Below, piece by piece: positions 28,554 through 47,418 of a stretch of 64,000 nucleotides of DNA (the first letter of the stretch is position 1; the number at the start of each line of letters is the position of its first letter). The stretch is from Alphaproteobacteria bacterium (GTDB lineage: Bacteria > Pseudomonadota > Alphaproteobacteria > Micropepsales > Micropepsaceae). Position numbers and translations under genes: made by a program. Below the pieces are notes generated by a model. The model did not search any database. It was not told the origin of the DNA and saw nothing but the letters and a program-made list of their open reading frames with translations. The stretch spans positions 10,003 through 74,002 of the forward strand of contig PMKE01000071.1 in assembly GCA_003158585.1 (NCBI GenBank). The letters are read 5' to 3'.

Positions 28554-28695
28554 TTTGATGACCCCGACGAAACGCCAACGAGTCTAGCGTCCATTCGAGG
28601 ACAGTCTCAACGGCGAAGACCGCCCCGGAAAGGGGGCGTTGTCGGCCGGATTGTCAGGTTCGGACGCCTTTCAGTCGCGCGCACGTGCCGGGACA

Positions 28696-29382: not shown

Positions 29383-29421
29383 GGAGCAAACAGAACTAGC
29401 CACGTATGGAGGATTTCTGAA

Positions 29422-30840: not shown

Positions 30841-30979
30841 GGAGATGTCGAGAATGAAGCACCGACTCGGCCGAATACGCAGCCCTCAACGATAAGGCAC
30901 CAAGCTCAAATTGGTGTCAACATCTGCTACAACAACCGCCAGGGATGGCGCGTGCCATTTGGACGCGCTTAGCTGCTGT

Positions 30980-31585
30980 TCAGTTGATGAGGAATCCAAC
31001 ACCGAAACCGCGATTGAATGCATCTGCAGAGTCGCGTGAAAGCTTTGATTGGAGTAAGAAAACCCATTCCGTGGTGTCGTCCGATGAGACAATGTCCGAC
31101 CCAAAATCCACGAGATATCCAATCGATTCGTTCAGGCGAATATCTGCCCAAAGTTCGGTAGGGCGGAGCTTTAAGTGCGCAAGCTCCCGAGCAATCTTCC
31201 CCATTTGCAGCGCAACATCCGCTTGCATCAAATCGGGCGACGGCATTTCGTCCGGTATGAATTGTTCAATAGAGACTGCCGGGTACGTGGCGTACAGGTG
31301 GGGCACAGGCACGCCTCGCGCGCCGATCATCTTTCGCCTTTGTTCGCTCCGAACCTGTTGCTGTTCAGGAGAAAGGCCCCACCCGACGAATGCCTTCGCA
31401 ATAACGTGTTCGCTTGTATTTTCGGAAAGAGCCAAGACGCCTTCCGCAACATAGGTCTCAGAGCCGCCCCTTCGCCAAGACCCAACGTCGGAGATCGCTA
31501 TAACAGCGCCCGCCGATCTTCGGACCCACTTCCGATTGATCGCCTCTAAGAGCTGCGACTCATTGAGCTTGTATTCGGAGAGCAT
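30980..31585 (-). CDS. Small protein-kinase-like fold protein (RIO/Kdo/APH-like minimal kinase)
   Basis: Candidate VAIK-like lysine VIAKAF, and a catalytic-loop plus DFG arrangement ADIRLNESIGYLVDFGSD. Only 201 aa. Confidence 0.5.
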   Translation of the reverse strand: MLSEYKLNESQLLEAINRKWVRRSAGAVIAISDVGSWRRGGSETYVAEGVLALSENTSEHVIAKAFVGWGLSPEQQQVRSEQRRKMIGARGVPVPHLYATYPAVSIEQFIPDEMPSPDLMQADVALQMGKIARELAHLKLRPTELWADIRLNESIGYLVDFGSDIVSSDDTTEWVFLLQSKLSRDSADAFNRGFGVGFLIN

Positions 31586-31613
31586 GCCTCCGAAGAGTCC
31601 ATCCGAAATTAGG

Positions 31614-32237
31614 TTAGCTATTTTTCGCTCCTAGCAGCCGAATGACCTCAACGGGCGTTTCGCCGTGGACGTATACGCCGTTCCACTTTTTGTTCAGCAT
31701 GGCGACGTATTCGTTCCACTCTTCGGGTAAAAATGCCTTTATTCCACGTTTCTTCAAGAATTCGCGCAACGTCTCTTCTGCTTTTTTATCGTCGTGCAGC
31801 TTGCCGACGTATTCGACCTCGACAAAGCAATCCGCCGCTTGTGTCGGGTTCTTAAAATCTAGCACTTCTTGGACTGCAATCTCGACTTCTCCAACCGTGC
31901 CCCTATGTATTCTACGCCCACCAGCAACACCTTTCTCGTATCCCAGCAACGCCATAACGGAGAGTGCTCCGCTCAAGTCCTCTGGCAAAATGCGAGCGAT
32001 TGCCTCCTCTCGCTTTGCCCCTCCGAACTGGCCACGCTTCACGACGAACTCAGGGCTTCCGTTCGTCACTCTCACACGAACGTCCAAACGGCGTTCTCCG
32101 ATGCCTTCAATGAAGGTGGAATAGTCGATAAAGCACCTTGATTGGACGACGGCATCCGCGGCTTTGCCAAGCTCGTCCTTTAGTGTCTTCGCTTGCGCTT
32201 CGGTGACGTGTGCCCTGAGTTCGATTTCTGTGGCCAT
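31614..32237 (-). CDS. CYTH-like (triphosphate tunnel metalloenzyme; CyaB/ThTPase family) protein
   Basis: N-terminal ExExK-like EIELR. Alternating charged beta-strands RLDVRVRV, EFVVKR, EVEIAVQEV and FVEVEYV are typical of the tunnel fold. Start lies 2 nt after the NDK-like stop. Confidence 0.6.
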   Translation of the reverse strand: MATEIELRAHVTEAQAKTLKDELGKAADAVVQSRCFIDYSTFIEGIGERRLDVRVRVTNGSPEFVVKRGQFGGAKREEAIARILPEDLSGALSVMALLGYEKGVAGGRRIHRGTVGEVEIAVQEVLDFKNPTQAADCFVEVEYVGKLHDDKKAEETLREFLKKRGIKAFLPEEWNEYVAMLNKKWNGVYVHGETPVEVIRLLGAKNS

Positions 32238-32239
32238 GT

Positions 32240-32776
32240 TTAGTTTTCCAATCCTTGATTTGGGAACCAGAGCGAGATTTCGTAATTCGCTTCCAGGTAC
32301 GGCTCAGAGCCGGACGCCTTGTCCGACGCGTGAACTAAGTTGGCTGTGCCTCGCTTTTCCGAATTTGCTTTAGCAATGCTATCGGTTCCAAAATCTCCAC
32401 GAATAGTACCTGGAAGTGCATTTTGTGGATCGGTAGCCCCAACGAGCGCACGCACTCGCTTGATGGCGTTCTCTCCGCCCAATACCATTGGAAGAACATT
32501 CCCCGACATCATGTAATCACGATTCCAGCCGAGGACCATTCTACCATAAGCAGTGACGTCATTCCCGACGTCCGTTCCAGCAGCGCGGCTCTTTTCACCA
32601 ATGATCGGTGCCAGCTTTTCGACTTGGTAATGCCTGTTGAACGCCTCAGCACTAGGTTTGTCGAGGCGGGCAGCCAGGATCGTAAGTCCGGCTCGCTCAA
32701 ATCGATGGATAATATCGCCTGCCAAACCACGCTTGATCGTGTCGGGCTTCAGAATAACAAGCGTCTTCTCATACAT
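32240..32776 (-). CDS. Nucleoside diphosphate kinase-like protein (divergent, extended)
   Basis: TLVILKPDTIKRGLAGDIIHRFERAGL and the catalytic-His motif NLVHASD. Longer than canonical NDK, with an internal insertion and a C-terminal tail. Confidence 0.75.
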   Translation of the reverse strand: MYEKTLVILKPDTIKRGLAGDIIHRFERAGLTILAARLDKPSAEAFNRHYQVEKLAPIIGEKSRAAGTDVGNDVTAYGRMVLGWNRDYMMSGNVLPMVLGGENAIKRVRALVGATDPQNALPGTIRGDFGTDSIAKANSEKRGTANLVHASDKASGSEPYLEANYEISLWFPNQGLEN

Positions 32777-32900
32777 TGAGGATTCCTCATGCTCTTTGAA
32801 AAAATGGGTTTTGTCGGGAAGCGGATACCGCGAACGAGCAAAAATCGCAACAGAGGCAGACCGTTAGGTCACATGGCTTGCCTCTCGCGCCAATGGCTGC

Positions 32901-33812
32901 TCAGAAATGCCGCATTAACCGGGCAACGTGAATTTTCAGGTACTCAAAGACTACGTACGTCCACATTTCTTCATTTAGATAGAATGAGTTACGCTCGTCT
33001 AGAGCGTTCGGCGCACCACGCCGAATGACAAGGGGTGACCAATCAGCAACAGCTTTGAACGTCAATGCGGCTCTTCGCAGGTGGAAAGGAGCTGTCACAA
33101 TTATCACGCGCCGTGGCAGAGAGCTGCCACTAGCACGAAGCACAGCAACCGAATTGACGACATTCTCGGGTGTGTTTCTTGCCTCCCTTTCAAGAACTAA
33201 GTCCGCCTCCGGCACGCCTGCTTGACGGGCGATTTCGGCGTAATAGTCGGCTTCGGCTCCGTCGAAGTGCCGCAGATAGCTTGCCTGCTTCCCGCTAAAC
33301 AGGATTTTGCCACAGAAGCCATTCTTGTAGAGCTTTATTGCCTCGTATACCCGCTGTTCGCCAGGCCCGCCGAATACAAAAACCAAATCTGCCGGGCTGA
33401 GGGGGTCCTCGCCAGATAGATAGTCCCAAACCTCTTCGAGTGCGCGTTTCTGTTCGTCACTTAGGCTAGCGCGAATCAGAAGGAAAGCCCTGTGGACTAT
33501 TGCGGTAACCGCGCGTGAATCGATTCCCTGAGGTGATGCGAAGCGGTAGGGATCGTCTGCAATACCTAAAGCTTCCAGCGCTCGGGTTAAGTGGAATAAT
33601 TCGAGCGTCTCAAGAGGACGCTTTTCGGAAATCTCGGCAGCGATCCGTTCAAGATAATCACGTTCGGTCGCCAAATGGGGATGGTATTTACCGGTCATCA
33701 TTTGCCTCCGGTATAGCCCGAAGTGGGAGACGTGGTCCAAGAAGCCACCTAAACACTCAAGAACACGTTCACGAGAGAGGTTGCAGTGCTTCGGCCGAAA
33801 ACTAGCCGACAA
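32901..33812 (-). CDS. DUF218/YdcF-family protein with N-terminal extension
   Basis: DLVFVFGGPGEQRV, ILFSGK, ARNTPENV and VIIVTAPFHLRRA match the YdcF/SanA-type DUF218 pattern. The start may instead be the MMTGKY ATG near 33701. Confidence 0.6.
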   Translation of the reverse strand: MSASFRPKHCNLSRERVLECLGGFLDHVSHFGLYRRQMMTGKYHPHLATERDYLERIAAEISEKRPLETLELFHLTRALEALGIADDPYRFASPQGIDSRAVTAIVHRAFLLIRASLSDEQKRALEEVWDYLSGEDPLSPADLVFVFGGPGEQRVYEAIKLYKNGFCGKILFSGKQASYLRHFDGAEADYYAEIARQAGVPEADLVLEREARNTPENVVNSVAVLRASGSSLPRRVIIVTAPFHLRRAALTFKAVADWSPLVIRRGAPNALDERNSFYLNEEMWTYVVFEYLKIHVARLMRHF

Positions 33813-33856
33813 GCAAAATACATTGTACCTTCTATTGTGGTCAGTGCATCCGAATT

Positions 33857-34576
33857 TTGCAGAGAGGTCCCATGTTTCCCTTCATCAAAATCTGTGGCGT
33901 CCAGTCACAAGCCGAAGCAAAACTCTGCGTTTCAGCGGGCGTCACGGCGGTCGGCTGTCTCGTTGGGCTGACGCACAAGGCGGAAGACAAGGTTACACCT
34001 GACGTAGCCGCGGGTATCTTCGCATCTCTTCCGAAGGAGGTGCTCAGCGTGCTCGTGACCCATCTCACAGAGGTGGACGATCTGGTTGAGTATGCAAATC
34101 TGACCAAGCCGCGTGCCATTCAGGTACACGGTGACGCGAGCCTTCAAACTGTCGAGCGCCTCGCGTCTCGCTTGCCGAACGTTGTGTTGATTAAGGCTGT
34201 GCATGTGCTCGATCAGGGCGCGGTTGAAGTGGCCCGAGAGTGGGACAACGCGCCAATATCCGCAATTTTATTAGACAGTCGCACAGCCGACCGCCTGGGC
34301 GGGACAGGGCAAACACACGATTGGGGAATCAGTGCGGCGATTGTCCGCGCATCCAAGCATCCGGTAATTCTCGCCGGTGGACTGAGTCCAGCGAATGTCG
34401 GAGACGCGATCCGGGCGGTTTGTCCCAAAGGAGTTGACACCAACAGCGGTGTCGAAGTTGTAGGTGGTGCAAAAGACCCTCTCAAAGTGAGAGCATTTGT
34501 TCAAACGGCACGCGACGAATTCGCGCGCTGTGATTCCGTGGGCGACGTATGTCAGCCGCCAAACACTGCGAAATAA
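33857..34576 (+). CDS. Phosphoribosylanthranilate isomerase (TrpF)-family protein, island-borne
   Basis: IKICGV, LLDSRTADRLGGTGQTHDW, ILAGGLSPANV and GVDTNSGVE. ATG 33872 is an alternative start. Confidence 0.75.
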   Translation: MQRGPMFPFIKICGVQSQAEAKLCVSAGVTAVGCLVGLTHKAEDKVTPDVAAGIFASLPKEVLSVLVTHLTEVDDLVEYANLTKPRAIQVHGDASLQTVERLASRLPNVVLIKAVHVLDQGAVEVAREWDNAPISAILLDSRTADRLGGTGQTHDWGISAAIVRASKHPVILAGGLSPANVGDAIRAVCPKGVDTNSGVEVVGGAKDPLKVRAFVQTARDEFARCDSVGDVCQPPNTAK

Positions 34577-35715
34577 AACCGCTGGAGAAGCGGACCTACC
34601 TGTTTAGGGAACAACTCATTTAGTCCGGTCACGGCGGCGAGAATGGCCGCCGCAATTTGCCATAGGCGATTCGTCACCCGACTGATGCGCTGAAAGACCA
34701 GTGCGCGAAGTGACATATATTCTTGCTCAATGCCGAAATTATCCAACGAGGCTTCGTCCTCGATATTGCCGATGGTTGTGCGATCCGATTTGACAACGCG
34801 GCAGATAATCGGCCACGAAATCTCCCTGAACTCTTCTATAAATTCACGCTGATGCGAGACGTTTTCTCCGACTATCGCTAAGCCGCATGCCAAAGCATCT
34901 CTTGTGCCGGTGCTTGTCGCACGATCATGAATGGTTTCCTCAAATCTCCGAACGGTACCATCTGAGAAGATGAGCTTTATCCCAATGTCGTGAGCGGTCC
35001 CGTCAGCGTTTTGCTCGAATTTATCGAACACTCCGATGACTGAGACGCATAGCTCCCCGAGCATGGAATGGAAATCGGTTACACTTCTTTCTGCAAACGA
35101 ATTCTCCAGAGCTTTGAAAATGCGCGCGTCTGTTGCCAGCGCCCGTACTGGGACGTGAGACGCGCGTTGGGCCTCCGCGAACCGGAGCACCTTTGTTTCA
35201 GATACACTTGCTATCGTGATTGGTTTGCCTACGCGGTTGCATAGCTCTAACGTCTGAGACAACTGGTCTGCGGAGAGATTGCAGTCGATGATTACGGATG
35301 ATGACCGCCTTATAAGCCGACGAATTCGCCTTAGTGGTAGGTCAATTCTATCGACGCCAGTTGAAGTAACGGCAGATACATAATTGCCTTCATGTTTGTT
35401 AGCGACAAAGGCACCCGCGTATGACCGGCGATCACGAGAGATGGACTCTGTCGAGACACCCTCGCGGCGCAAGCGGGAGACGATCCACTTCTCTACCACA
35501 CTCCCGGCTCGGACAGCCGTCCAGATCCCAACCTTGTATCCGAGGCGGGCAAGATTGACGCTGACGTTATAGGCGCTTCCACCAAGTCGAACCTCAATGT
35601 GCCCGACCTTATCGAGATGTTTTGGATCGTCATGTGATATTCCTAAAATATCGACATGGGCCGATCCGATAATCGCAAAACGCGCCCTTTTTCTTTTTGT
35701 CCCCGTTGCGCGCAT
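34552..35715 (-). CDS. PfkB/ribokinase-like kinase with hydrophobic C-terminal extension
   Basis: FAIIGSAHVDILG, RLGGSAYNVSVNLARLG (GG motif), and a degenerate anion-hole motif STGTRDALACGLA. C-terminal LWQIAAAILAAVTGL. The ORF opens at 35787. Confidence 0.65.
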   Translation of the reverse strand: MRATGTKRKRARFAIIGSAHVDILGISHDDPKHLDKVGHIEVRLGGSAYNVSVNLARLGYKVGIWTAVRAGSVVEKWIVSRLRREGVSTESISRDRRSYAGAFVANKHEGNYVSAVTSTGVDRIDLPLRRIRRLIRRSSSVIIDCNLSADQLSQTLELCNRVGKPITIASVSETKVLRFAEAQRASHVPVRALATDARIFKALENSFAERSVTDFHSMLGELCVSVIGVFDKFEQNADGTAHDIGIKLIFSDGTVRRFEETIHDRATSTGTRDALACGLAIVGENVSHQREFIEEFREISWPIICRVVKSDRTTIGNIEDEASLDNFGIEQEYMSLRALVFQRISRVTNRLWQIAAAILAAVTGLNELFPKQVGPLLQRFYFAVFGG

Positions 35716-35946
35716 TGGTCCCCCCGACACCAATACTGAACAGCCTGAACGTTGCGCTTCTTCCTCGCCGCTGTTTGTAAGGCGCACGCACCGCTAGGCG
35801 GCTCCCCATGGCGATATTGTCCGGCTAGTTGCCGAGACGCAAGTATGTGATCGCGACCTTACCTCATCTGCAATGTCGCTGCGGTGCGCTTCGAACGAAA
35901 ATTCAGTGGGCTACCAGTCACTTATCTCTGATACTCCTGTTGAGAG

Positions 35947-36480
35947 TCAGATTAACTCGTTCCGGTTTGCGTAGTGCACGATAAGTAGCGCCGCCGCGTT
36001 GAAGAGCGCCATTTTGATGTCTTCAGTCTCCCACGGTCGGCGCTTGTTGGGAAGCCTATGCCGAATCTCCTTGAGGTACGACGCGACAGTGGACGCGATG
36101 GCATAGCGTGTCTTGGGCTTCGTGCTTTCGAAGCAGAATTTGATTTGCTCGCGCGAGATAATGCGAAGCGGCGTTTTGTTCATCACAGAGAGTGACGCGA
36201 TGGACCGGCACAGCTGCTGTATCCGCTTGCTCCGCCGCGTAGCCCCTCCTTCGAAGGCTTCAAGGACGATTGATGCGGGATGATATTCCGCGACGATGGA
36301 CTCGACGCGCTTCATGCACCGGGCGTTCTTCTCTTGCGGCGTGCCGGGCATCTTGGCCGCGGCGCAGATATCCCACGCCACTGGAGATAGCGGACCGTCG
36401 AAGACGATCCACCCGAATCCGTCCTTGGACGGGAAGATCGCGAGCGCAGTGTTAAAGCCGAGACGGTTGCTGTTCGTCAT
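35947..36480 (-). CDS. Hypothetical protein (weak RNase H/RuvC-like N-terminal pattern, key Asp not conserved)
   Basis: 177-codon ORF overlapping the upstream XRE gene by 4 nt. LAIFPSKDGFGWIVF resembles but does not match the RuvC motif. Confidence 0.45.
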   Translation of the reverse strand: MTNSNRLGFNTALAIFPSKDGFGWIVFDGPLSPVAWDICAAAKMPGTPQEKNARCMKRVESIVAEYHPASIVLEAFEGGATRRSKRIQQLCRSIASLSVMNKTPLRIISREQIKFCFESTKPKTRYAIASTVASYLKEIRHRLPNKRRPWETEDIKMALFNAAALLIVHYANRNELI

Positions 36481-36827
36481 ACGTTTGGTTGTTCGCCCGC
36501 AACCCGCGAGGCGATCTCGTCGAGTAGTTGGCGCTTGATAATCGACTCCGCGTCGGTGAGGCCGCAGAGCGTCTCGGCCAACAGGGCGGCGCGCTTGGCG
36601 ACCTTCAACTCGACAGCGGCATAGAGGGAGGGAAAGATACGGCGCGCGTGCACGCCGAAGATGAATTCAGCGGCAATTAGCGATTCTTTTGAGGGACCAC
36701 GGTTCAGCTTTTCGTATCGAATGATCGCTTCGTCTGATATCCCAAGGAGTGCACCCAACTCACGTTGCGTGAGCGCCCACCGCTTGCGGTACATTTTCAA
36801 ATATGAGGGATATGGATAGTCGTGCAT
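36477..36827 (-). CDS. XRE-family HTH transcriptional regulator
   Basis: KRWALTQRELGALLGISDEAIIRYEK helix-turn-helix. Confidence 0.75.
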   Translation of the reverse strand: MHDYPYPSYLKMYRKRWALTQRELGALLGISDEAIIRYEKLNRGPSKESLIAAEFIFGVHARRIFPSLYAAVELKVAKRAALLAETLCGLTDAESIIKRQLLDEIASRVAGEQPNV

Positions 36828-37090
36828 TCAGCGCGCAAGCGCTGCGTCCCGCATCAGCAGGAGGCGCAGCGGTTGTGTGCGGGCATCGTCTCAGGACGGT
36901 CGCAATCTGTGGAGGACGACTAACCTGACAACTCGGCCGGTTCTCAAGGACATAATCTCATCGCTCCTTCATGTTGAACACGAAACCCATGTGTACTTCA
37001 TGAAGACGGTATTGTCGGTCACACAAGAATGGCTAGAACGTCAGAAAACTCGCCCTATTTCGGCAGCATGCTCTCGCGCACGATAGGCAC

Positions 37091-37300
37091 ATGAAAGACA
37101 ATCAACTTTCCCCCGGCGACCTCTTCATTGATCGGTACATGCCCGGAGCGAGCGCCGAAGAGCGCGAGGAAGCGGAGAAGAATCTAGAACGCTTCGTCGC
37201 CGCCCTTGTTCGCATCGACAAGCGGCTCGAATGGGAGAAGCGGAATGCGATTCGCACGAATCCCGATTCGGAGGTAGATTCCATTAGCACCCGCATATGA
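37091..37300 (+). CDS. Small acidic hypothetical protein upstream of recombinase 2
   Basis: 69 codons. The stop overlaps the recombinase ATG (ATGA), which suggests translational coupling. Confidence 0.4.
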   Translation: MKDNQLSPGDLFIDRYMPGASAEEREEAEKNLERFVAALVRIDKRLEWEKRNAIRTNPDSEVDSISTRI

Positions 37301-38847
37301 AGCAATACTTCGCGTACATCCGCGTCTCGACTGCCAAGCAGGGAGAACACGGATCGTCATTGCAGGAACAGCGAAGCGCCATTGAGGCGTATGCGTCTCG
37401 GAATAGCCTCTCGATAGCTGAATGGTTTGAGGAGCGCGAAACTGCAGCGAAGCAGGGCCGTGCGGTGTTTTCCCGGATGCTTGCCAAGCTGGAGAAAGGC
37501 GACGCGCAGGGCGTCGTTATACACAAAATCGACCGGAGCGCGCGAAACTTGAAAGATTGGGCGAACCTGGGCGACCTTATCGACCGCGGTATCGACGTGC
37601 AGTTTGTCCACGACAGTTTCGACATGCGCTCCCGTGGCGGACGCCTCTCCGCCGATATCCAGGCCGTCGTTGCCGCCGACTATATCCGCAACCTTCGCGA
37701 TGAAGTGAAGAAGGGCTTCTATGGCCGCCTAAAACAGGGCCTTTATCCCTTGCCAGCGCCCATTGGCTATCTCGACCAGGGCAAGGGAAAGCTAAAGATT
37801 CCCGATCCAGTACGCGCGCCTTTGGTGAAAGAGGCATTCGAGCTGTACGCGACCGGCACCGCATCGTTGCGGGTACTTCAGAAGGAAATGAAGCGGCGCG
37901 GATTGAGGACTAAGGCTGGCAAGCCGCTCTCGCTGAATTCCCTCGACCAGATGCTCCACTGCCCGTTCTATGTCGGCCTTATCCGCATCATGAAAACGGG
38001 CGAGACGTTCGAAGGAAAGCACGAACCCATCGTCTTCAAGTCAACTTTCGACCGCGTGCAGGCCATCATGCGGGGCAAGACGGTATCGCGGCAGGTGAAG
38101 CATGATTTCACCTTCCGTAGAATCGTCCGGTGCGGGACGTGCGGCCGTCACCTCGTCGGAGAGCGTCAGAAGGGCCGGTACGTGTACTATCGCTGCCAAG
38201 TGCCGGACTGCCGGGGAACCATCGTCCGGGAGAAGGACCTCGACCACGCGGTACAAACCGCGCTCTCCCTTCTCCGAAGCGATCCGGCGGAGCAGCGATG
38301 GATTGAAGCCAAAGTGACAAATCTCACCAAGCAGGACGCCGAAGGGCTGGAACGGCTCAAGGCCTCCATTCAGCTACGCCTTGCGAAATCCGACGTGCGG
38401 CTGTCCCGGCTCACGGACGCATACCTTGACCGCGATATCGACAGAGAGATTTTCGAGCACCGGAAAAGTGTCGTTTTGGAGGAGCGGGCCAACCTCCGGG
38501 ACGAATTTTCTCGACTGTCCGCGAACGACCTGTCCGTGCACAGGGCACTCAGAAACCTCGAACTCGGAAATACGGCTCTGTCCGGCTACAAATCGGGAAT
38601 TCCCGCCGAACAGCGGGAAATCATCGAAAGCGTGACCTCGAACTTCACGCTACACGGAAAAAACATAGTGATTGCGCTACGTTCTCCGTTTAGAGGGTTA
38701 GCAAACTGGCGTGAATCGCAAATCGGTGCGCCGCATCGGGACACGGCTCAAGAACGCGCCGCGCAAATCCTCGATATCGCGCTGAGGGACGCCAAGGTGT
38801 CAGGTTCCGCCCCCGTTTCGCAGGACGGGCACAAACTCGCGACATGA
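37297..38847 (+). CDS. Second large serine recombinase
   Basis: FAYIRVSTAKQ catalytic serine region, recombinase domain, zinc ribbon RCGTCGRHLVGERQKGRYVYYRCQVPDCRG, coiled-coil tail. Confidence 0.9.
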   Translation: MKQYFAYIRVSTAKQGEHGSSLQEQRSAIEAYASRNSLSIAEWFEERETAAKQGRAVFSRMLAKLEKGDAQGVVIHKIDRSARNLKDWANLGDLIDRGIDVQFVHDSFDMRSRGGRLSADIQAVVAADYIRNLRDEVKKGFYGRLKQGLYPLPAPIGYLDQGKGKLKIPDPVRAPLVKEAFELYATGTASLRVLQKEMKRRGLRTKAGKPLSLNSLDQMLHCPFYVGLIRIMKTGETFEGKHEPIVFKSTFDRVQAIMRGKTVSRQVKHDFTFRRIVRCGTCGRHLVGERQKGRYVYYRCQVPDCRGTIVREKDLDHAVQTALSLLRSDPAEQRWIEAKVTNLTKQDAEGLERLKASIQLRLAKSDVRLSRLTDAYLDRDIDREIFEHRKSVVLEERANLRDEFSRLSANDLSVHRALRNLELGNTALSGYKSGIPAEQREIIESVTSNFTLHGKNIVIALRSPFRGLANWRESQIGAPHRDTAQERAAQILDIALRDAKVSGSAPVSQDGHKLAT

Positions 38848-39045
38848 AGCAGCTTCATGAACGTCTCTCGCTTGCCGCGCTTGGCTCGGCCTTATGGTGG
38901 ATCACTGAGCGTCTCCTGGACACCGGCGTTGCTCGTGTGATGGAGACAATCATGCGGGCCTTGTCTCACTTAAAGGTCTAGCCAAGGCGTAGTGGACCTA
39001 TCGAATCGGAATTTGCGAGAAAAGCGGCCATCCGTATAATTGTGA

Positions 39046-39279
39046 ATGATGGAACATATTGACCACGAGCCTCAGAACAAAGATGCCTGGATTTGCCTCT
39101 GCGGAAACGTACCCTCTGACGACGGCTTCTTTCCGTGCGATGGCAAAGGCAATGAGGTAGAGCCGACAGAAAAGGATTGGAAGACAAATTGGTACGTGTG
39201 CTTGCGTTGCGGACGAATGATTGACCAAAACACGCTTGTCGTTGTGGGACGGAATGAGCATCCGAAGCTATTGGATTAG
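39046..39279 (+). CDS. Small Cys-rich (zinc-ribbon-like) hypothetical protein
   Basis: CLCG...C...CLRCG spacing. 77 codons with no recognised family. Confidence 0.35.
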   Translation: MMEHIDHEPQNKDAWICLCGNVPSDDGFFPCDGKGNEVEPTEKDWKTNWYVCLRCGRMIDQNTLVVVGRNEHPKLLD

Positions 39280-39306
39280 TCCGAGGCCGCTGCTGCGTTG
39301 CGTAGC

Positions 39307-39774
39307 CTACTTCTTTGAACCAGCCCCCATCTTCTTGATAAGCAAGTCAGCAATGTACGGCACACCCTTAGTGAGGGGAACGTAACCGACCGTTGGAGGC
39401 ATGCCTTTCAAGTCCGTGTCGTCCACCCGCACGGGCAGGATGTACTCTTTGCCCTGCTCTTCTAGCGCCCTAGCCTGTGCGCTTTGGCGCTCGTGATTTG
39501 TCCACATCCTCTCCGCATATTCCCTTGAAACGAACATGACGCAGAAGCGAGCGCGCTTGCGGTAAATTTCGTCGAATGTATCAACGAGGTTTTTACCCCA
39601 AAGAAATTCGGGATAGAAATCGTCATAGAACACAGCAATTCCGGCATTCCGCAGAAGCTTGGCCAGCTCTTCCGCTTGCATCCGCTCCGTGCCAGCGAAG
39701 GAAATTGCTATGTCGAAAGTCTGTGGATCAGCGGCTGGCTTCTTGACGGTCGCGCCTCCGATCCGTCTCCGCAC
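39307..39774 (-). CDS. TIR-domain protein (ThsB-like, stand-alone)
   Basis: FDIAISFAGTERMQAEELAKLLRNAGIAVFYDDF, FCVMFVSREYAERMWTNHERQSA (conserved W...E) and ILPVRVDD. Confidence 0.8.
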   Translation of the reverse strand: MRRRIGGATVKKPAADPQTFDIAISFAGTERMQAEELAKLLRNAGIAVFYDDFYPEFLWGKNLVDTFDEIYRKRARFCVMFVSREYAERMWTNHERQSAQARALEEQGKEYILPVRVDDTDLKGMPPTVGYVPLTKGVPYIADLLIKKMGAGSKK

Positions 39775-39780
39775 ATCGGT

Positions 39781-40647
39781 TTACAGCCGCTCTGATGGGC
39801 GGGCGAAAGGCAGAAAAGTCAGACCGGACTTCTCAATTTCTGCGTTGGCGGTGAGGAGTTTCTCAATGCCGGCCGAAAAACTCTTCGCATGCGAGTCGAA
39901 CCAGCCGTGTGCAGTATTTGCGTTGCTGTCAAAGAAACCATCGCCGCGCGAGTCGAACTTGATGGACCGCCAGTAGCAATCTTCGAAATCGAACTCGGGA
40001 CAATCGCCAAATGTCTTGAGACCGAGAAACTTGAAGACGCTCTCCAGTTCGGCCGACAGCGGCGGGTGTTTGGGTCGGTAATGGATGACCCACCCCTTCT
40101 CCCGTCCGGTATCCAGCCAGGTTAAGCGGTACAGGAAATTATCGTCCTCGCTCTGCTTCATGCTCTCGTGTTTTGCGGCCGTATGGCCGTCGCCGCCGAA
40201 GCTGAAATCGAGCTGCCGTCCGCGAGACTGCTTCCCGAAGAAGTATCCCCATCCCTCCGGCTGGACGAAAAAGAAGCCGCAGCTTTCAAGCTCGCGCGCA
40301 GCCGCTCCCAAATTGCCGTACGCCGCGCCGAAAAGGCTTGCGAACTGCTCCACGTTGAAGCCCTCGTCCACCCAGCGCACGTAGCATTGACGGCCTGCGG
40401 CGAACCCGCAGCCGCTCCGCTCGAATCCTAGATAGCTGAGAAAATCGGGAATCTGTATGCCGGACGTGGACCATGTGCTCGGCTCGACATGCAGGCTGTA
40501 CCCGATATCGTCCTTGCTCCATTGCAGGCGCGCTAACAGGAAGTTAGCGCCGCCGCCCTGCGCTCTCGCTACAACCTCGGACTTCAAAGCTTGGTGTGGA
40601 TCGCGTGCCATAATCGCAAACTCAATGCCGACTCCTTGAGCGAGCAT
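39781..40647 (-). CDS. Hypothetical protein with internal two-fold repeat, co-transcribed with the TIR gene
   Basis: 288-codon ORF ending 7 nt before the TIR start. Two similar modules: FLSYLGFERSGCGFAAGRQCYVRW... and FKFLGLKTFGDCPEFDFEDCYWRS... Confidence 0.55.
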   Translation of the reverse strand: MLAQGVGIEFAIMARDPHQALKSEVVARAQGGGANFLLARLQWSKDDIGYSLHVEPSTWSTSGIQIPDFLSYLGFERSGCGFAAGRQCYVRWVDEGFNVEQFASLFGAAYGNLGAAARELESCGFFFVQPEGWGYFFGKQSRGRQLDFSFGGDGHTAAKHESMKQSEDDNFLYRLTWLDTGREKGWVIHYRPKHPPLSAELESVFKFLGLKTFGDCPEFDFEDCYWRSIKFDSRGDGFFDSNANTAHGWFDSHAKSFSAGIEKLLTANAEIEKSGLTFLPFARPSERL

Positions 40648-40678
40648 GATACTATGATTCCGAGGAATCGCTGACTCT

Positions 40679-42463
40679 ATGCGCGGAATGACGAAACTGG
40701 CCCCGAAATCTCAACTGACGGCGACAAGATCACAGAGCGTTGCGACAAACGGTCTTCGGCTCGTTCGACAGCTGACGCTTGCAGGACTTGATCCGCTGGA
40801 ATCGGCAGTGGAAATCGCGTCCGCCGCCGGAATCGAGGCGCGGGGTGCGGTATTCACAAAGCGCGAGGTCGTCGAGTTCATTCTCGATCTGGTCGGATAC
40901 ACGACTGATCGCGACCTTACGCACCTTCGGCTCCTTGAGCCTGCCTTCGGAAACGGGGATTTTCTTCTCGTCGCTGCGGAGCGGCTTCTTGCCTCATATC
41001 GCACCCATCCCGGCAGTAAAACGAGTCAGGGCGGAGCAACTGCGCTTCGGAACAGTATTCGGGCCGTTGAACTACATCGCGGTACTTTCGATGCGACACG
41101 TGAGAAGCTCAAGGCGCTTCTCACTGCGAACAACGTGGGAGACGAGACATCGGAAGAACTCCTGGCCGCTTGGCTTCAGTGTGGAGACTTCCTTCTAGCC
41201 GATATTGACCACACCTTTCATGTGGTCGTCGGCAATCCGCCCTATGTCCGTCAAGAACTCATTGCAGACGCGCTCATCAACGAATATCGCAGGCGTTACC
41301 AGACCATATTCGACCGGGCGGACATATACGTTCCATTTATCGAGCGCTCTCTATCTTTGCTTGAGCCGAAAGGAACGCTCGGTTTCATTTGCGCCGACCG
41401 TTGGATGAAGAATCGATATGGTGGGCCACTCCGGCGATTCGTCGCTGACAGATATCGACTCAAATATCATGTCGATATGACGGACACTCCGGCATTCCAC
41501 AGCGACGTTATCGCGTACCCTGCAATTTCGATCATTTGCCACGAGAAATCCGGTCCCACTCGTGTCGCATACCGGCCGGAAATCGAGGCGGCGTCGCTCA
41601 ATACCCTTGCGCGAGAATTAAAGGGTAAGAAGTTGTCAGCGCGGGTCACCGAATATCCGACAATCACTTCGGGCGACGCTCCTTGGATACTTGAGGGTAA
41701 CGGACGTGGGAAGATCGTGCGGGCGCTTGAAGCGCGACTGCCGACGCTTGAGGAAGCCGGATGCATGGTCGGTATCGGTGTTGCCACGGGAGCCGACCAA
41801 GTTTTCATTCAGCCCCTCGACGAATTTAACCTTGAACATGATCGCACGCTCCCGCTTGTCATGACGCGAGACATTGAAACGGGGACGATCAAGTGGCGCG
41901 GATACGGCGTGCTCAATCCGTTTGGAGAGGATGGAAAGCTCGTTTCGCTTCGCGATTATCCGAAGCTCGCTGCATACCTCGAAACACATGGAGCGGCGAT
42001 CAAGGCGCGGCACGTGTCTAAGAAGAACCCGAACTCGTGGTATCGGACGATTGACCGGATTTATCCCGAACTCACACACCGGCCGAAACTACTCATTCCC
42101 GATATCAAGGGAACAGCGCATATCGTCTATGATAGTGGTCGGTTCTATCCGCATCACAATCTCTACTACATCACTTCCGAGACGTGGGACCTTCACGCGC
42201 TGCGGGCGATACTGCGCTCGGGCGTCGCGTGGCTCTTCGTTTCGACATATGCCACGAAGATGCGCGGCGGATACCTACGATTTCAAGCGCAATATCTTCG
42301 TCGCATCCGCGTGCCGCATTGGAAAGACGTTCCGGCAAAAGTGCGCGAGGAATTGGTGCAAGCGGGCAAATCAAATGATGCCAATCGCTGCAACGACGCA
42401 GTTGCGCACCTATATGGCTTGGGCGAGTCGGAACGGTACGCTTTAATGGGGGGTGAAAGCTGA
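40679..42463 (+). CDS. Gamma-class N6-adenine DNA methyltransferase (Eco57I/TaqI-like; M.XhoI/M.PaeR7I-type)
   Basis: [16 protein letters not shown], motif [13 protein letters not shown], motif [11 protein letters not shown], plus a C-terminal target-recognition domain. ATG 40688 is an alternative start. Confidence 0.85.
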
Positions 42464-42466
42464 TCT

Positions 42467-43210
42467 ATGGCGCTCAATCTTGCAAACTACGACGAAAAGT
42501 CCCGCGAGGCCGTGAGGGCGTTTTGGGGAAACCGCGAAGCGGCGAGGAAAAAACAAATCGAGCTTGGCAAAAGCGACCAGGGCGAGCGGGCAGGCGTCAC
42601 GGGTGGCAAGAACATGGACGGGTTCGCCGCTCTCGTTCTCGACCTCGTCGCGGCGAACGGACTCGCTGACGCGCAAATCATGCGGGAAAGGCGTGCACTG
42701 ACACTTCCCGGTTATTTCCGTCCTACGAAGCTCTGGGATTTGCTCGTAATCCACGGGGGACAGCTGCTTGCTGCGCTCGAATTCAAGTCGCAAGTCGGGC
42801 CGTCGTTCGGAAATAATTTCAATAATCGCGCGGAGGAATCCCTCGGAACGGCCGTCGATTTCTGGACAGCCTACCGGGAGGGGGCGTTCGGGGAAATTCC
42901 AAAGCCGTTCGTCGGCTGGATGATACTCGTCGAGGACGAACCGGCGTCGCGGGCAAAAGTGAAAGAAACTTCGCCGAATTTTCCGGTATTTGAGGAGTTC
43001 AAAAACGTCTCGTATGCAGAGCGGTACAATATCCTCTGCAAAAAGCTCGTTAAGGAACAGCACTACACCGCCGCATCGGTGCTCCTCTCGCCGCGCGATG
43101 CGATCAACTCGGGGATGTACAGTGAGATGTCAGAGCTTACGGACCTCAAGACATTCGTGACCGGCTTCGCAGGGCACATCGCGGCGGCAGCAGCGCGGAA
43201 GAGCGCCTAG
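42467..43210 (+). CDS. XhoI/PaeR7I-family type II restriction endonuclease
   Basis: [26 protein letters not shown] and [23 protein letters not shown] match my recollection of the RE_XhoI family. Starts 3 nt after the methyltransferase stop. Confidence 0.75.
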
Positions 43211-43255
43211 CAAACTCACGAAACAACTTGAAGCAACTTCTCCGTCACGTGGTCA

Positions 43256-43522
43256 TCACTTAACGTCGGCATACCCGAACCAGATTTCGTTGATCCACAC
43301 CGCCGTCGCCTTCGTCTCCCCGGACAGCACTGCCTTCTTGCCGCGATTGTTCGCTCGGATGATCCGCGAGAGTACGTGCCTCGCTTCTATGCTCATGTAC
43401 TGGGGGTCTCGTCTCCCGAAGAACTCGCGGATGATCTTGTCCGTGGTCCTGATAACGACGGCCTTCTTTTCGGGCGATTTTGTCCGGCTCTCGCCCCAGA
43501 CCGTGAATCCCTCATGTCCCAT
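43256..43522 (-). CDS. Hypothetical 88-aa protein
   Basis: ORF only. No clear Shine-Dalgarno sequence and no recognised family. Confidence 0.3.
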   Translation of the reverse strand: MGHEGFTVWGESRTKSPEKKAVVIRTTDKIIREFFGRRDPQYMSIEARHVLSRIIRANNRGKKAVLSGETKATAVWINEIWFGYADVK

Positions 43523-43779
43523 ACTGTGCGCGATGAATTGCTAATGCCCGCAGTGTCGCAGTGGAGCGGAGGGCAAAAAAGGACGACGAACCTGACAATC
43601 CGCCGGATCGCTTGGAACAGCGAGCAAGAGTCCTCCGTGCTGTCAGGTTTGTCTCCCGTGCGTGGATAATCTGTCGCGCATACGATGATTCCATGTGGAA
43701 TCGTGGCGAATTGCCGCAAAGCAGCTTCTCCGCGGCGGCCATAGAATCCCGTGTTCGTGATCCTTTGCGGAGGAAACCC

Positions 43780-44160
43780 ATGAAACTCTTGCTTCGTCGC
43801 AGTGAACGCTCGTCCGTTTTGGGCAAGCCGGTATACGTTCTCGAAATGCGCGCCGGACTTTCGGAAGAAGAAAGGGGCTGGATTCAGAAATACAAATTCG
43901 GCCCGTCGTTTCTGTACACGAAGAAGGGCAAGCCGACCGGAGACACGACCACGTGGACCGGTATCGGCCAGAATCTTCTCCACTATGCAATGGACCTCAC
44001 CGTGTCCGTGAACGACCTTGTGAACGGCAAGAAGATAGAGTGTAAGGACATTATGGAAATGTTGGCCGTCGAGGGGCAAATCCGCGAGGCGGCGCAGAAC
44101 TTCGCGAATGTTCTCCGCGCGGCGTCGCAGTTCGGTGGTGAAGAAGTGATCGAACTCTAA
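43780..44160 (+). CDS. Hypothetical 126-aa protein upstream of the ATPase
   Basis: ATG 43780 is preceded by GGAGGA at 43769-43774. The stop is 1 nt before the ATPase GTG start. Confidence 0.5.
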   Translation: MKLLLRRSERSSVLGKPVYVLEMRAGLSEEERGWIQKYKFGPSFLYTKKGKPTGDTTTWTGIGQNLLHYAMDLTVSVNDLVNGKKIECKDIMEMLAVEGQIREAAQNFANVLRAASQFGGEEVIEL

Positions 44161-44161
44161 C

Positions 44162-46792
44162 GTGGCGATCAACCTCTTTAGCTGGCTTCTTCCGGGAACC
44201 AAGGAAAAGGAACTCCGGGACACGCGCTCGTCGTGGGAACGAACGGAGCGGGCGTGGAAGGCGTCGCCTCTCGCTTTCTTCGACCCCGCGGACCTCGCGG
44301 ACGAAGTCGTGCGCGAGACGATGCAAGACGCGGAGCGCATGCCCGCCGTGCCCGTTGTCGCGGCTCTGTGCGAAGCGACGGAAGAACTCGTCCGCGCCGA
44401 ATCCGTAGGCGATATAGAACCGTTGTGGAGCGTCATAGAAGAGAATGTCGAAGCCGCAGTCGGCTTCCGTGAAATGGTCGGCCGCCGCTCGGTTTGGGCG
44501 ACGAACTTCAAGACCATGCGCGGTGTATGGGCCAAGCTTTTGTCCGGCCCATATCGCGAATTCGTGAAAGCGCTTCCCGAATCTTGCTTTGGGCAATGGG
44601 ATGAGAAGGGAGAGTTTGAGGTCCCGCTCGTCGACCTTCTCGACAATCCGGCAGAACTAATCGAGAAGCTTATTTCGTTCCCGTTCACGGACGAGGCGCT
44701 TAATCTCAAGCTCTTCGAGGAATATCGCGGGCGTCTCCGTAGTCGCATCGCGGACGCATCCGGCATGTCGTTAGCCGACATGGCGAAGGGTGAGCGCGGC
44801 ATCGTTCCGCCCACCGCGCAGAAGAACAAGAGCGCGCGAGAACTCTTGGACCTGTATTTAGGCGGAACTCCGTTTGCGGAACTCTTCGCACTCCCGGTCC
44901 CATTCTCCGTGCCCGAGCACGTCCGTTTTGAACATTGCCACGTCATCGGCGGCACGGGGCACGGCAAGACGCAGCTGCTTCAGAAGATGATTTATGCCGA
45001 CTTGGTGCAGTCGCAATACGACCGCCGAAGCGTGGTCGTTATCGATAGCCAGGGCGACATGATCCAAAAGCTCTCCCGTCTGGAGCTTTTCTCTCCATAC
45101 GTGCCCGGAGGGTTGGGAGACCGGCTCGTCCTCATTGATCCGTCGGACGTGTTGCATCCGTTTGCCTTGAACCTCTTTGACGCGCACATGGACAGGGTGA
45201 AGGACTATGACGCGGCAGACAAAGAACGCGTGCTGAACGGTGTCGTGGAGCTATACGAGACCTTCTTCGACGCCCTCTTGGGAGCCGAACTCACGGCCCG
45301 TCAGGACGTGGTGTTCCGATACATCGCCCGCCTCATGCTCACCATTCCTGGCGCGACGATCCACACTCTCATGCAGATCATGGAGAACGGAAAGGCGTTC
45401 AAGCCGCACATGGACCGGCTGGAAGGGTCGGGACGGCGTTTCTTCGAGACCGAGTTCTTCTCTCCTTCGTTTGCCCCCACGAAGAGTCAAATCCTGAAAC
45501 GGCTCTGGGGCGTCCTCTCCACTCCGGCCTTCGACCGCATGTTCTCGCAGCAAGAGAACAAGCTCGACCTCTTCGATGCGTTGAACAGCGGGAAGATCAT
45601 CCTCGTGAACACGGCCAAGGACGTGCTCAAGGAGGAAGGGAGCCGTGTGTTCGGCCGCTTCTTCATCGCCATGCTGGCACAAGCGGCTCTGGAGCGCTCC
45701 ACGATACGCGATAAGGACCGCACGCCCGCGTTTGTGTACGTGGACGAAGCGCACGAGTATTTCGACGACCGGATAGAGGCAATTCTGAACCAAGCACGGA
45801 AATTCAAAGTTGGCATAACACTCGCGCATCAGACGCTGGACCAGCTATCGACCCGCCTTCGCTCGGTCATACTCGCAGACACCAGCATCAAATGCGCTGG
45901 GGGCGTGTCCGCCAAAGATGCACGCGCCATCGCGGACGAACTCCATACGACGCCCGAGTTCATCGACGGAATGCGGCGGAAAGGCCCCAAGACGGAGTTC
46001 GCTGTATGGGTCAAAAACGTCACGCCTCACGCCGTCCGGCTCTCCGTTCCTCTCGGCTTCCTTGAGCGGCAGTACACGCTCGACGAGGAGGGATACGATC
46101 TTCTCATCGAGAGAAACCGGGAACGATACAGCGGGACGGTTGCGAGCGCGCCCGTTGTCGGAGAGCCGATCCCGGAAGAGACGCCGAAGCCGACCCCAAC
46201 GCCCCGCGTCGAACCGCCACCCAAAACGGATAGCGTTCCGCTCCCGCGTCCTCCGCGCGATATCTCCGCGCCGCGCGAGCCGGGCAAGGGAGGGCCGAAG
46301 CACACATACCTCCAATCACTCGTGAAGGAATTGGCGGAGCAACAGGGATTGAAGGCGACGATTGAAGCGCCGGTTCCCGGAGGCGGACAGGTTGACGTGC
46401 TTATCGAGCGGGACGGGGTGCTGGCGGCAATCGAAGTATCGGTCACGACGCCCGTTGAATACGAACGGCAGAATTTGGAGAAATGCCTCCGCGCCGGATA
46501 CCCGAAGGTCGCGGTCGTTCTCGCCAAGTCGAAAACGCAGCAAAGCGCGTACCGCGCGGCGCTGTATGAATCTGTCCCCGATACTGACCGCGAGCGCGTC
46601 TCGTACCTCACGCCCGAAGAGATACCCGACTATATCGCCACTCTCGCGCCGCCACCGCCGCGCTCAGAGCGGATTGTCCGGGGATACCGCGTGAAGGGTG
46701 CGGTCTCTCCCGTGACGGCGGAGGATGCGAAGGCGAGGCGCGACGCGGTCGCACGCCTTATCGCAAAGTCGCTGTCTGGACAGACGGATTAG
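44162..46792 (+). CDS. TraD/VirD4/HerA-like P-loop ATPase with Pro-rich linker and C-terminal PD-(D/E)xK-like domain
   Basis: Walker A VIGGTGHGKTQ, Walker B FVYVDEAHEYF, ITLAHQTLDQL. Linker PEETPKPTPTPRVEPPPK. C-terminal GGGQVDVLIERDGVLAAIEVSVT. Confidence 0.7.
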   Translation: MAINLFSWLLPGTKEKELRDTRSSWERTERAWKASPLAFFDPADLADEVVRETMQDAERMPAVPVVAALCEATEELVRAESVGDIEPLWSVIEENVEAAVGFREMVGRRSVWATNFKTMRGVWAKLLSGPYREFVKALPESCFGQWDEKGEFEVPLVDLLDNPAELIEKLISFPFTDEALNLKLFEEYRGRLRSRIADASGMSLADMAKGERGIVPPTAQKNKSARELLDLYLGGTPFAELFALPVPFSVPEHVRFEHCHVIGGTGHGKTQLLQKMIYADLVQSQYDRRSVVVIDSQGDMIQKLSRLELFSPYVPGGLGDRLVLIDPSDVLHPFALNLFDAHMDRVKDYDAADKERVLNGVVELYETFFDALLGAELTARQDVVFRYIARLMLTIPGATIHTLMQIMENGKAFKPHMDRLEGSGRRFFETEFFSPSFAPTKSQILKRLWGVLSTPAFDRMFSQQENKLDLFDALNSGKIILVNTAKDVLKEEGSRVFGRFFIAMLAQAALERSTIRDKDRTPAFVYVDEAHEYFDDRIEAILNQARKFKVGITLAHQTLDQLSTRLRSVILADTSIKCAGGVSAKDARAIADELHTTPEFIDGMRRKGPKTEFAVWVKNVTPHAVRLSVPLGFLERQYTLDEEGYDLLIERNRERYSGTVASAPVVGEPIPEETPKPTPTPRVEPPPKTDSVPLPRPPRDISAPREPGKGGPKHTYLQSLVKELAEQQGLKATIEAPVPGGGQVDVLIERDGVLAAIEVSVTTPVEYERQNLEKCLRAGYPKVAVVLAKSKTQQSAYRAALYESVPDTDRERVSYLTPEEIPDYIATLAPPPPRSERIVRGYRVKGAVSPVTAEDAKARRDAVARLIAKSLSGQTD

Positions 46793-46961
46793 GCGGAGGC
46801 ATTCCCCTTATCGGCTTGCAGTATCCGCAGCGGGGCCACCCGTCGCACACAAGCCAGTACCGCCGCATGAAGAGGGTCCGCAGGGATCGGCCGATCCGCA
46901 CTTGAAGCGGCTTGCCGCACTCGGGGCAGACCTTGTTCTCGTTCGCAGCCTCAAGCGGCAT
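46758..46961 (-). CDS. Small topoisomerase-type C4 zinc-ribbon protein
   Basis: CPECGKPLQVRIGR...WLVCDGWPRCGYCK. ATG 46961 overlaps the end of the tandem-HTH ORF by 11 nt. Confidence 0.55.
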   Translation of the reverse strand: MPLEAANENKVCPECGKPLQVRIGRSLRTLFMRRYWLVCDGWPRCGYCKPIRGMPPPNPSVQTATLR

Positions 46962-47412
46962 CGCGGCCCCCTTCCGGCTCGCTTTCCATCGCGAGGAACC
47001 GGGACACCTTGTCCCCTGACAGGCGCGGCTTCCAGTCTCCACGTTCCCAATGGGAAAGCGTGCCCTCGTCAACGCCGAGGAGCTTCGCGGTTGTCTTGAT
47101 GGACAGACCGAGCCGCAACCGCTGCCGGGAGATGCGCTCTGCCAGGGTGGCAGGGGCCGGGAGGGGGTCATAGCCGAGGAAGCGAAAGATCGCCGGGAAC
47201 TGCTTAGCCGTGGGCTTCACACGGTCCTTTTCCCAGAGGAGGACCGTCTCGGGCGCTGTGAGGAGTTGTAACGCCGCCTGGGGTTGGGTCAGACCCAGCT
47301 GAAGGCGACGCCTAAGCAGATGTTCGCCCAAGGTTTTGGGCGTCTCGGCATAGGGCTTCGGACGACGCCATCGCAGGGAGACCGGGACGTGGGGGTGCAG
47401 GAAGGCAACGCG
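46951..47412 (-). CDS. Tandem XRE-type HTH protein, currently fused in frame to the comM 5' fragment
   Basis: Two HTH units, LRRRLQLGLTQPQAALQLLTAPETVLLWEK and ISRQRLRLGLSIKTTAKLLGVDEGTLSHWER. No internal ATG; an in-frame TTG at 47331 is a possible own start. Confidence 0.6.
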   Translation of the reverse strand, partial: RVAFLHPHVPVSLRWRRPKPYAETPKTLGEHLLRRRLQLGLTQPQAALQLLTAPETVLLWEKDRVKPTAKQFPAIFRFLGYDPLPAPATLAERISRQRLRLGLSIKTTAKLLGVDEGTLSHWERGDWKPRLSGDKVSRFLAMESEPEGGRDAA

Positions 47413-47418
47413 ACGACA
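47413..47418. other. Right island junction (candidate att core)
   Basis: Minus-strand TGT-CGT directly after ...GCG ATG AAT CCC (AMNP). Counterpart of 27054-27059. Confidence 0.5.

Follow-up and report, generated by a model that had tools for sequence, protein, structure and literature searches.

The two open reading frames (ORFs) of 288 and 155 codons found on the minus strand of the 64,000-nucleotide stretch analyzed here (the window; contig PMKE01000071.1 of a member of the Alphaproteobacteria) are not a conserved two-gene operon. They are the two parts of one nonsense-interrupted gene. Judged from their sequences, the intact homologs are single chains of ~435 residues, in each of which a ~275-residue N-terminal domain (N-domain) is joined by a short, conserved helix, the linker, to a C-terminal TIR domain resembling that of the NADase AbTIR. 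The explanation we favor, with moderate confidence, is that the window holds one gene of an uncharacterized N-domain-TIR family, that this family comprises anti-phage proteins of the abortive-infection type, and that the copy in the window has been split by a stop codon.

A previous sequence-only reading had taken the locus for an operon in which an unrecognized 288-residue protein is followed by a stand-alone TIR protein. Both ORFs were indeed present (39781..40647 and 39307..39774, minus strand). They lie in the same frame and are separated by one TAA and two codons, i.e. 6 nucleotides lie between the stop of the first ORF and a GTG, which begins at the seventh nucleotide after that stop. 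When 40647 to 39307 was translated as one frame, exactly one stop was encountered (...FLPFARPSERL*TDVRRRIGG...FDIAISFAG...). The TAA is situated within a linker motif that is conserved in the fused homologs, R-L-x-x-D-I-E-x-x-x-x-R-P. The same truncated product is recorded, in identical form, on four contigs (ENA and NCBI), and an assembly error is therefore an unlikely source of the stop. The frame of the first ORF is open from 40647. Translation probably begins at M13 (ATG 40611, 276 residues, MARDPHQ), because this start fits the N termini of the family (MNGRDPHQ; M-x-x-R-D-P-H-Q) as well as the public gene call P0001, which matched the 288-codon ORF by 100% from M13 onward. The public gene call for the TIR ORF begins at M32, so that the first strand of the TIR domain, FDIAISFAG (39691-39717), would be missing. 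In a scan of the locus for promoters and terminators, no excess over the shuffled expectation was seen.

The architecture of the homologous loci pointed in the same direction. A search of a set of 5.8 billion proteins with the 288-residue "partner" yielded 256 homologs, and 107 of the best 120 were 400-480 residues long and carried the TIR family PF13676 themselves. Loci with both domains were sampled from genomes (n = 44), from metagenomes (the best 80 of 422 relatives), and from one viral contig; individual loci are given L numbers below. The genome loci comprised 36 single intact ORFs, 7 frameshifted ones (several of them in long-read metagenome-assembled genomes), and 1 that was cut by a contig end. 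For the metagenome loci, whose selection by best score biases the sample toward intact copies, the corresponding numbers were 77 intact and 2 contig-cut genes plus 1 (L108) with a stop at residue 66. The viral contig (L149) carried an intact copy. Thus, 114 of the 122 loci uncut by a contig end encode one protein of ~435 residues with N-domain and TIR domain. Together with the shared frame of the two ORFs, this identifies the locus in the window as a single interrupted gene. The operon reading, which had itself named a lack of conservation of the gene pair as grounds for its rejection, is refuted, since conservation extends to the fusion and not to the gene pair.

When 1.84 billion representative proteins were searched exhaustively with a profile, 312 clusters with the N-domain were recovered at E<=1e-3. 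Members were found in Patescibacteria, Proteobacteria, Acidobacteriota, Chloroflexota, Planctomycetota, Armatimonadota, Elusimicrobia, Actinomycetes, and others. Their distribution is patchy over at least eight phyla, with identities of 45-80%, and three cultured isolates are among them. Intact homologs occur, for example, in Dechloromonas sp. CZR5 (L021), Methylomonas fluvii EbB (L022), and Bradyrhizobium sp. HKCCYLS20291 (L026). In the favored explanation, the family has spread horizontally across many phyla. In public databases, all members are named either "hypothetical protein" or "TIR domain-containing protein."

The assignment of the 155-residue protein to the TIR domains was confirmed. 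It matched Pfam TIR_2 (PF13676) with an E value of 1.1e-16 and 61.9 bits (gathering cut-off, 28), and the closest solved relatives were the bacterial TIR NADases 7uxr, 7uwg, and 8g83 (AbTIR), with profile E values of 1.7e-10 to 1.9e-9. The W...E pattern had also been correctly read as the region of the catalytic glutamate: WTNHE aligned column for column with WTNYE of the AbTIR NADase (8g83/7uwg) and was aligned with 7uxr as well. Among 66 family members, the W, T, and E of the motif are conserved in at least 90%, the Glu being nearly invariant. With this motif intact, the TIR half appears to be catalytically competent. AbTIR and BtTIR (8g83, 7uwg, and 7uxr) share W-T-N-x-E with the family, but they possess their own coiled coil or no N-terminal domain and have another biological role, the comparison extending over ~130 residues.

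A PADLOC check of the pair, as had been proposed, gave a match for the TIR half and none for the 288-residue protein. The best model was PDC-S66, a TIR-containing phage defense candidate of 282 residues (E 2.8e-15 for the window and 8e-17 for the fused homolog P0003). The alignments covered model positions 140-240 for the window protein and 125-240 for P0003. Because only the TIR part aligned and the N-domain stayed uncovered, PDC-S66 represents a different architecture. In the same scan, the ThsB1 model of Thoeris matched the TIR half weakly (E 6e-4).

The N-domain was not recognized by any library. The 288-residue ORF had no match at E<=0.1 in Pfam, PADLOC, or NCBIfam, in agreement with the earlier statement that it is devoid of SIR2, SLOG, Macro, and transmembrane features, and a PHROGs search returned nothing at E<=0.01. 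A sequence profile search of the PDB with the family matched TIR domains only. Structure prediction, also proposed previously, resulted in a confident AlphaFold2 model (pLDDT 91.8 and pTM 0.88, from an alignment of 67 sequences), in which the N-domain is a tandem duplication of a beta3-alpha-beta2-alpha unit. HHalign of one half of the domain against the other gave a probability of 92% (E 5.8e-7), and each repeat bears the signature "H..P...LGF...C-x7-C." Foldseek of the model against the PDB and BFVD produced no match at E<=1e-3. A PUR-alpha or Whirly fold was considered and not accepted, the TM-scores being 0.11-0.28 at a root mean square deviation of ~17 A. As modeled, the N-domain is a real, hitherto undescribed domain with a novel fold. 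Across 67 sequences 22 of its residues are invariant, including five cysteines and two histidines (H53, C80, C88, C123, H189, C216, and C224 in the numbering of the 288-residue ORF), which may form a metal site. The sequence-only reading was correct in its idea that the partner is a module not described before, either sensor or effector, of a putative TIR-based defense.

The full-length model of P0003 (pLDDT 87.3, pTM 0.83) places the linker helix at residues 273-284. It points to a defined arrangement of N-domain and TIR domain, which would be compatible with a putative autoinhibition. In its architecture, the family falls into the class of single-chain sensor-TIR proteins, with a non-TIR domain, a catalytic TIR domain, and no obligatory partner; in the window, the polypeptide is interrupted. 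Among TIR systems of Escherichia coli, 12 of 32 defended, and several of these systems are single proteins (PMC11350192). The closest characterized analog in logic is SpbK of the Bacillus subtilis element ICEBs1, a single-chain TIR NADase that acts by abortive infection and is switched on by the phage portal protein YonE, which brings its TIR domains into clusters (PMC12847820). SpbK likewise combines a non-TIR N-terminal part with a C-terminal TIR domain in one chain, resides on a mobile element, and needs no partner gene. It differs in that no homology of the N-terminal parts was found; for the N-domain of the window protein, the PDB yielded no counterpart in either sequence or fold.

With SpbK as a template, a family protein would be a stand-alone, single-chain anti-phage protein of the abortive-infection type that is carried by mobile islands. 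The N-domain would act both as a sensor and as an autoinhibitory module and would detect a cue of infection, which may be a phage protein or a nucleic acid. Once this cue is sensed, the N-domain would release the TIR domain or cluster several of them, and the freed or clustered TIR domain would hydrolyze or cyclize NAD+ via its conserved Glu. What the analysis shows is how the gene is built, which domains it encodes, how these are conserved, and in which architectures and genomic settings they occur; we infer the defense role, the sensor-effector polarity, the NADase activity, and the autoinhibition.

The N-domain also occurs with effectors other than the TIR domain described here. It is fused to a CHAT protease in P0130 and P0316, the latter being a complete ORF of 594 residues located beside a STAND-like NTPase and an IrrE/helix-turn-helix pair. 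In P0182, it is fused to a SEFIR-type TIR domain, and P0129 shows the reversed order, with a different TIR domain at the N terminus and the N-domain behind it. Furthermore, stand-alone N-domain proteins of 253-292 residues form a coherent set that ends exactly at the domain boundary. Their genes overlap the downstream gene by 4 nucleotides. In L067 and L068, this downstream gene encodes a 473-residue AbiEii nucleotidyltransferase (Pfam 2e-20, PADLOC 1e-45). The upstream gene of these two loci is not an AbiEi-family antitoxin; the stand-alone N-domain protein P0171, encoded upstream of AbiEii, gave no match in PADLOC, and the precomputed Pfam hits of the stand-alone genes were empty. In L062-L066, the downstream gene belongs to a conserved, undescribed family of 273-288 residues, which is ~40% identical between loci and is a candidate new effector. 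Its genes (L062:5780-6601, L064:5834-6691, and L066:5876-6742) always overlap the upstream stand-alone N-domain gene. The proteins exhibit a glycine-rich hydrophobic segment and gave a weak hint of Abi_alpha only (E 0.04).

As far as can be read from architecture, this combination of a constant module with interchangeable toxic modules points to a sensor or regulator whose effectors can be exchanged. Comparable designs are CapRel(SJ46) and the type IV toxin-antitoxin system AbiE (AbiEi/AbiEii), in which a regulatory or sensor domain restrains a toxic domain, either in cis or as the product of an upstream gene. The stand-alone N-domain gene of L067 and L068 is located where AbiEi normally precedes AbiEii, but the N-domain has no sequence similarity to the antitoxin domains of CapRel and AbiEi (no Pfam match).

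The TIR clade of the window is itself fused to at least five unrelated partner domains, on either side. In Acidobacteriota (L053, L054, L056, L059, and L060), it forms the N terminus of proteins of 376-414 residues, which share a conserved C-terminal domain of ~250 residues ("...FAEMR.RRLLLNE...") and constitute another uncharacterized TIR fusion family. In L052, a different C-terminal domain follows the TIR domain, and in L055 it is preceded by a membrane-rich N terminus of 400 residues.

The surroundings of family members were compared by all-against-all BLAST of the ORFs within 5 kb in about 45 loci. No conserved partner gene was found in this range; solely a large serine recombinase recurred, in 5 loci. 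A bulk scan of the 145 nearest neighbor proteins with PADLOC and Pfam revealed four integrases, three AriA/PtuA/GajA-like ATPases (AAA_15/AAA_21), three DNA methylases, two patatins, two IrrE proteins, and many singletons. AbiTii, an nSTAND NTPase, AbiEi/AbiEii, and DEAD-box helicases were also seen nearby, at single loci. This is circumstantial evidence that the family resides on mobile elements or in defense islands.

In some loci, a gene for a DUF2188 protein (PADLOC candidate PDC-S16, E 4e-29) was found directly upstream of the N-domain gene. The respective module lies at L062:4108-4989, L067:3986-4996, and L002:5788-5985, and L062 and L067 also encode a LexA-like S24 repressor. This arrangement hints at control linked to the SOS response or DNA damage in those loci. 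DUF2188 and LexA were rejected as parts of the system, as they were found only in L002, L062/L063, and L067/L068 and are absent from the window and most loci. DUF2188 was tied to defense by Burroughs and Aravind (2020), as cited in bioRxiv 10.1101/2022.04.27.489752. In its main text, the 2025 survey of Thoeris systems (bioRxiv 10.64898/2025.12.03.692087) does not describe the N-domain and treats DUF2188 only as an untested putative effector.

Several points weigh against the anti-phage interpretation. The case for defense is made by architecture and neighborhood, and the assignment of the N-domain as the sensor is our own deduction. Given its conserved cysteines and histidines, the N-domain could have enzymatic activity of its own or be an effector that binds metal. 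Moreover, the neighborhoods are heterogeneous, no family being represented by more than 4 of the 145 neighbor proteins.

As to the allele in the window, we consider it probable that it is a recently inactivated copy, i.e. a pseudogene. It is possible, albeit clearly less probable, that the split is a functional fission, in which an N-domain protein and a TIR protein are produced by termination and reinitiation at the GTG and interact in trans. A number of observations speak for such a fission and against inactivation. The in-frame GTG follows only two codons after the TAA. Both halves retain essentially all residues conserved in the family: at sites conserved to at least 90%, the N-domain deviates at 1 of 70 and the TIR domain at 3 of 52 (V to I, K to Q, and L to M). 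These deviations are within the range of intact members, and there is no decay beyond the stop. The natural operons that couple a stand-alone N-domain gene to a separate effector gene by a 4-nucleotide overlap demonstrate that an N-domain can work in trans with an effector. In addition, L002 independently carries an in-frame TAG ("TRLN*DIQ"; L002:6841-6843) one codon downstream of the stop position in the window. The N-domain of L002 is ~61% identical to that of the window, and its TIR domain shows 0 violations at conserved sites. This adjacent stop hints that stops in the linker are tolerated.

Other observations speak against a fission. Linker stops are found in only 2 of about 127 loci (the window and L002), and the third in-frame stop, that of L108, is located elsewhere, at residue 66. 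The idea that the linker stop is a programmed or recurrent feature was dropped as unsupported, as after the addition of 82 more loci it was still confined to the window and L002. No canonical start codon is present near the stop of L002, so that L002 at least cannot make a complete TIR domain by reinitiation. In the window, the stop cuts the predicted linker helix, which is conserved, and the linker behind it reads "RIGGA" instead of the consensus "xxxRP." The public gene call likewise speaks for inactivation, as a TIR product begun at M32 would be without its first beta-strand. In the natural two-gene versions that were found, the partner is never a TIR protein. The lack of a Shine-Dalgarno motif at the TIR start carries no information, since such a motif is missing from most genes of the window.

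A broader alternative, which we hold only tentatively and rate as rather doubtful, takes the N-domain as a widespread module for sensing infection or restraining toxins that works independently of the kind of effector (TIR, CHAT, AbiEii, or the 273-288-residue family), in cis and in trans, with the linker stops of the window and L002 being still-functional fissions.

It is improbable in our judgment that the protein has no part in immunity and serves as an NAD-processing or interaction protein with a housekeeping, regulatory, or inter-bacterial task, its location on an island being incidental. Such a role would agree with the presence of ordinary metabolic genes in the heterogeneous neighborhoods and with the fact that PADLOC has no model of the N-domain. 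The patchy spread over distant phyla argues otherwise, as do the swapping of the N-domain onto the death effectors CHAT and AbiEii and the recurrent proximity of recombinases, integrases, restriction-modification systems, and Abi, STAND, and AriA/PtuA-like genes. The frequent disruption of the gene (8 of 122 loci in addition to L002-L005) is, moreover, typical of toxic genes.

The sequence-only reading had ascribed a Thoeris-like logic to the locus, and in that case a ThsB-like TIR protein would sense the phage, make a cyclic ADP-ribose (cADPR)-type signal, and thereby activate the 288-residue protein as a ThsA-type effector. We regard this as very unlikely. The TIR half does have the catalytic Glu of bacterial TIR domains, is closest to the AbTIR group, which produces cADPR isomers, and has the weak similarity to ThsB mentioned above; its partner is uncharacterized and contains conserved cysteines and histidines. 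In Thoeris systems (types I-IV; newer types in bioRxiv 10.64898/2025.12.03.692087), however, a separate ThsB gene is conserved beside the gene of a signal-responsive effector. Here, the two parts share one frame, the TIR domain is normally fused to its partner, and neither a conserved pair of separate genes nor any other conserved neighbor was found. No effector gene of the SIR2-SLOG, Macro-transmembrane, or related kind is conserved next to the family genes, and the partner itself contains none of these features. The N-domain furthermore occurs with non-TIR effectors, namely CHAT, AbiEii, and the 273-288-residue protein. Because none of these is a signal synthase, the N-domain behaves like an invariant sensor component and not like an effector that is switched on by a signal.

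One might suspect that the stop stems from faulty assembly or sequencing, or that it is read through in a programmed manner to yield the full-length fusion, since all but one codon are intact and the linker stop of L002 could be taken as a sign of regulated read-through. Hardly any weight can be given to this idea. The truncated product recurs on four contigs, an erroneous substitution is not to be expected from short-read assembly, and of the stop codons UAA leaks least. The stops of the window and L002 differ in codon (TAA and TAG) and position, no conserved signal was seen downstream of them, and the fused loci need no read-through.

If the family does defend against phages, bacterial TIR immunity would gain a sensor fold new to it, in the form of a compact single-gene system present in at least eight phyla, and one sensor domain would be wired by nature to four or five death effectors. 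The family would then be a good natural experiment on the control of unrelated effectors by a single sensor, both in cis and in trans. For annotation, the locus illustrates that pairs of the type "TIR plus unknown neighbor" can be broken fusions, and Thoeris-type calls need a prior check of the reading frame and of the architecture of homologs. The locus overturns nothing in current understanding. Because the allele in the window is probably dead or crippled, it is the family and not the locus that is of value, and the family is a good experimental lead.

Table 1. Features of the split N-domain-TIR gene and of the island that carries it (positions in the window).
Feature	Position	Strand	Remarks
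N-domain half	39781..40611	-	276 residues, starts at ATG 40611
In-frame TAA splitting the gene	39781-39783	-	Position of N278 in the fused homolog P0003
TIR half	39307..39774	-	155 codons from the first possible start, GTG
TIR_2 domain	39370..39711	-	Residues 22-135 of the 155-codon ORF, PF13676
W-T-N-H-E motif	39490..39504	-	Glu95 codon GAG 39490-39492, putative catalytic Glu
Genomic island in comM	27066..47415		~20 kb; borders approximate, from GC content and split ComM
Large serine recombinase	37297..38847	+	Convergent with the TIR gene
XhoI-type type II restriction-modification system	40679..43210	+	Divergent from the TIR gene; context only
Eco57I/TaqI_C-type methyltransferase	40679-42463	+	594 residues; PADLOC MTase_II 1e-236
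XhoI-family endonuclease	42467-43210	+	247 residues; Pfam XhoI E 7.9e-93; PADLOC REase_II 2e-111

The split gene is part of a genomic island inserted into comM (Table 1). The GC content is 0.52-0.59 inside the island compared with 0.63-0.68 outside. The N-terminal part of ComM (46951-48459) reads into an island-encoded helix-turn-helix sequence, and the C-terminal part (Mg_chelatase 145-205 plus Mg_chelatase_C) forms the in-frame tail of a large serine recombinase ORF (26586-28553). The junction in comM falls at the conserved motif MNPC|PCGY. The presence inside the island of a second large serine recombinase, whose gene and the TIR gene are convergent, points to two elements, either in tandem or nested. 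Because relatives of this second recombinase were also detected no more than 5 kb away from the N-domain-TIR gene in L002, L009, L031, and L035, it is likely the mobilizer of the cargo. The split copies of the window and L002 both adjoin such recombinases, which are 53% identical to each other; that their two independent stops fall on adjacent codons of the linker helix may be a coincidence or may reflect tolerance of stops there. The earlier statement that a restriction-modification system adjoins the pair inside the island was correct: the divergent XhoI-type pair lies within the low-GC region, its start being 31-67 nucleotides away from that of the split gene.

Further genes of the island were noted. 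Convergent with the TIR gene, a 77-codon ORF (39046-39279, plus strand) displays a CxC...CxxC zinc-ribbon pattern; it was not found in the other family loci. The best sigma-70-like match of the region (39013-39040, 10/12) precedes this ORF. A protein of 876 residues encoded at 44162-46792 contains a TrwB/HerA-like P-loop segment (Pfam TrwB_AAD_bind 4e-05; phrog_5156 1e-26) and might have a function for the island or its conjugation or be another defense protein. Homologs are encoded near family members in L010 (15-1067) and L011 (12424-13395). The island also encodes unannotated proteins of 201 and 207 residues and a membrane protein of 472 residues (29422-30840). The cargo at 30980-35787 looks metabolic and not defensive, with NDK (32240-32776), DUF218, PRAI/TrpF (33857-34576), and a PfkB-type kinase (34552-35787), and could be a cassette for nucleotide or sugar modification. 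Just outside the island, at ~49306-49916 (L001:696-1306), the precomputed Pfam matches of the matching public contig indicated a MazE-like antitoxin paired with a Fic-domain protein.

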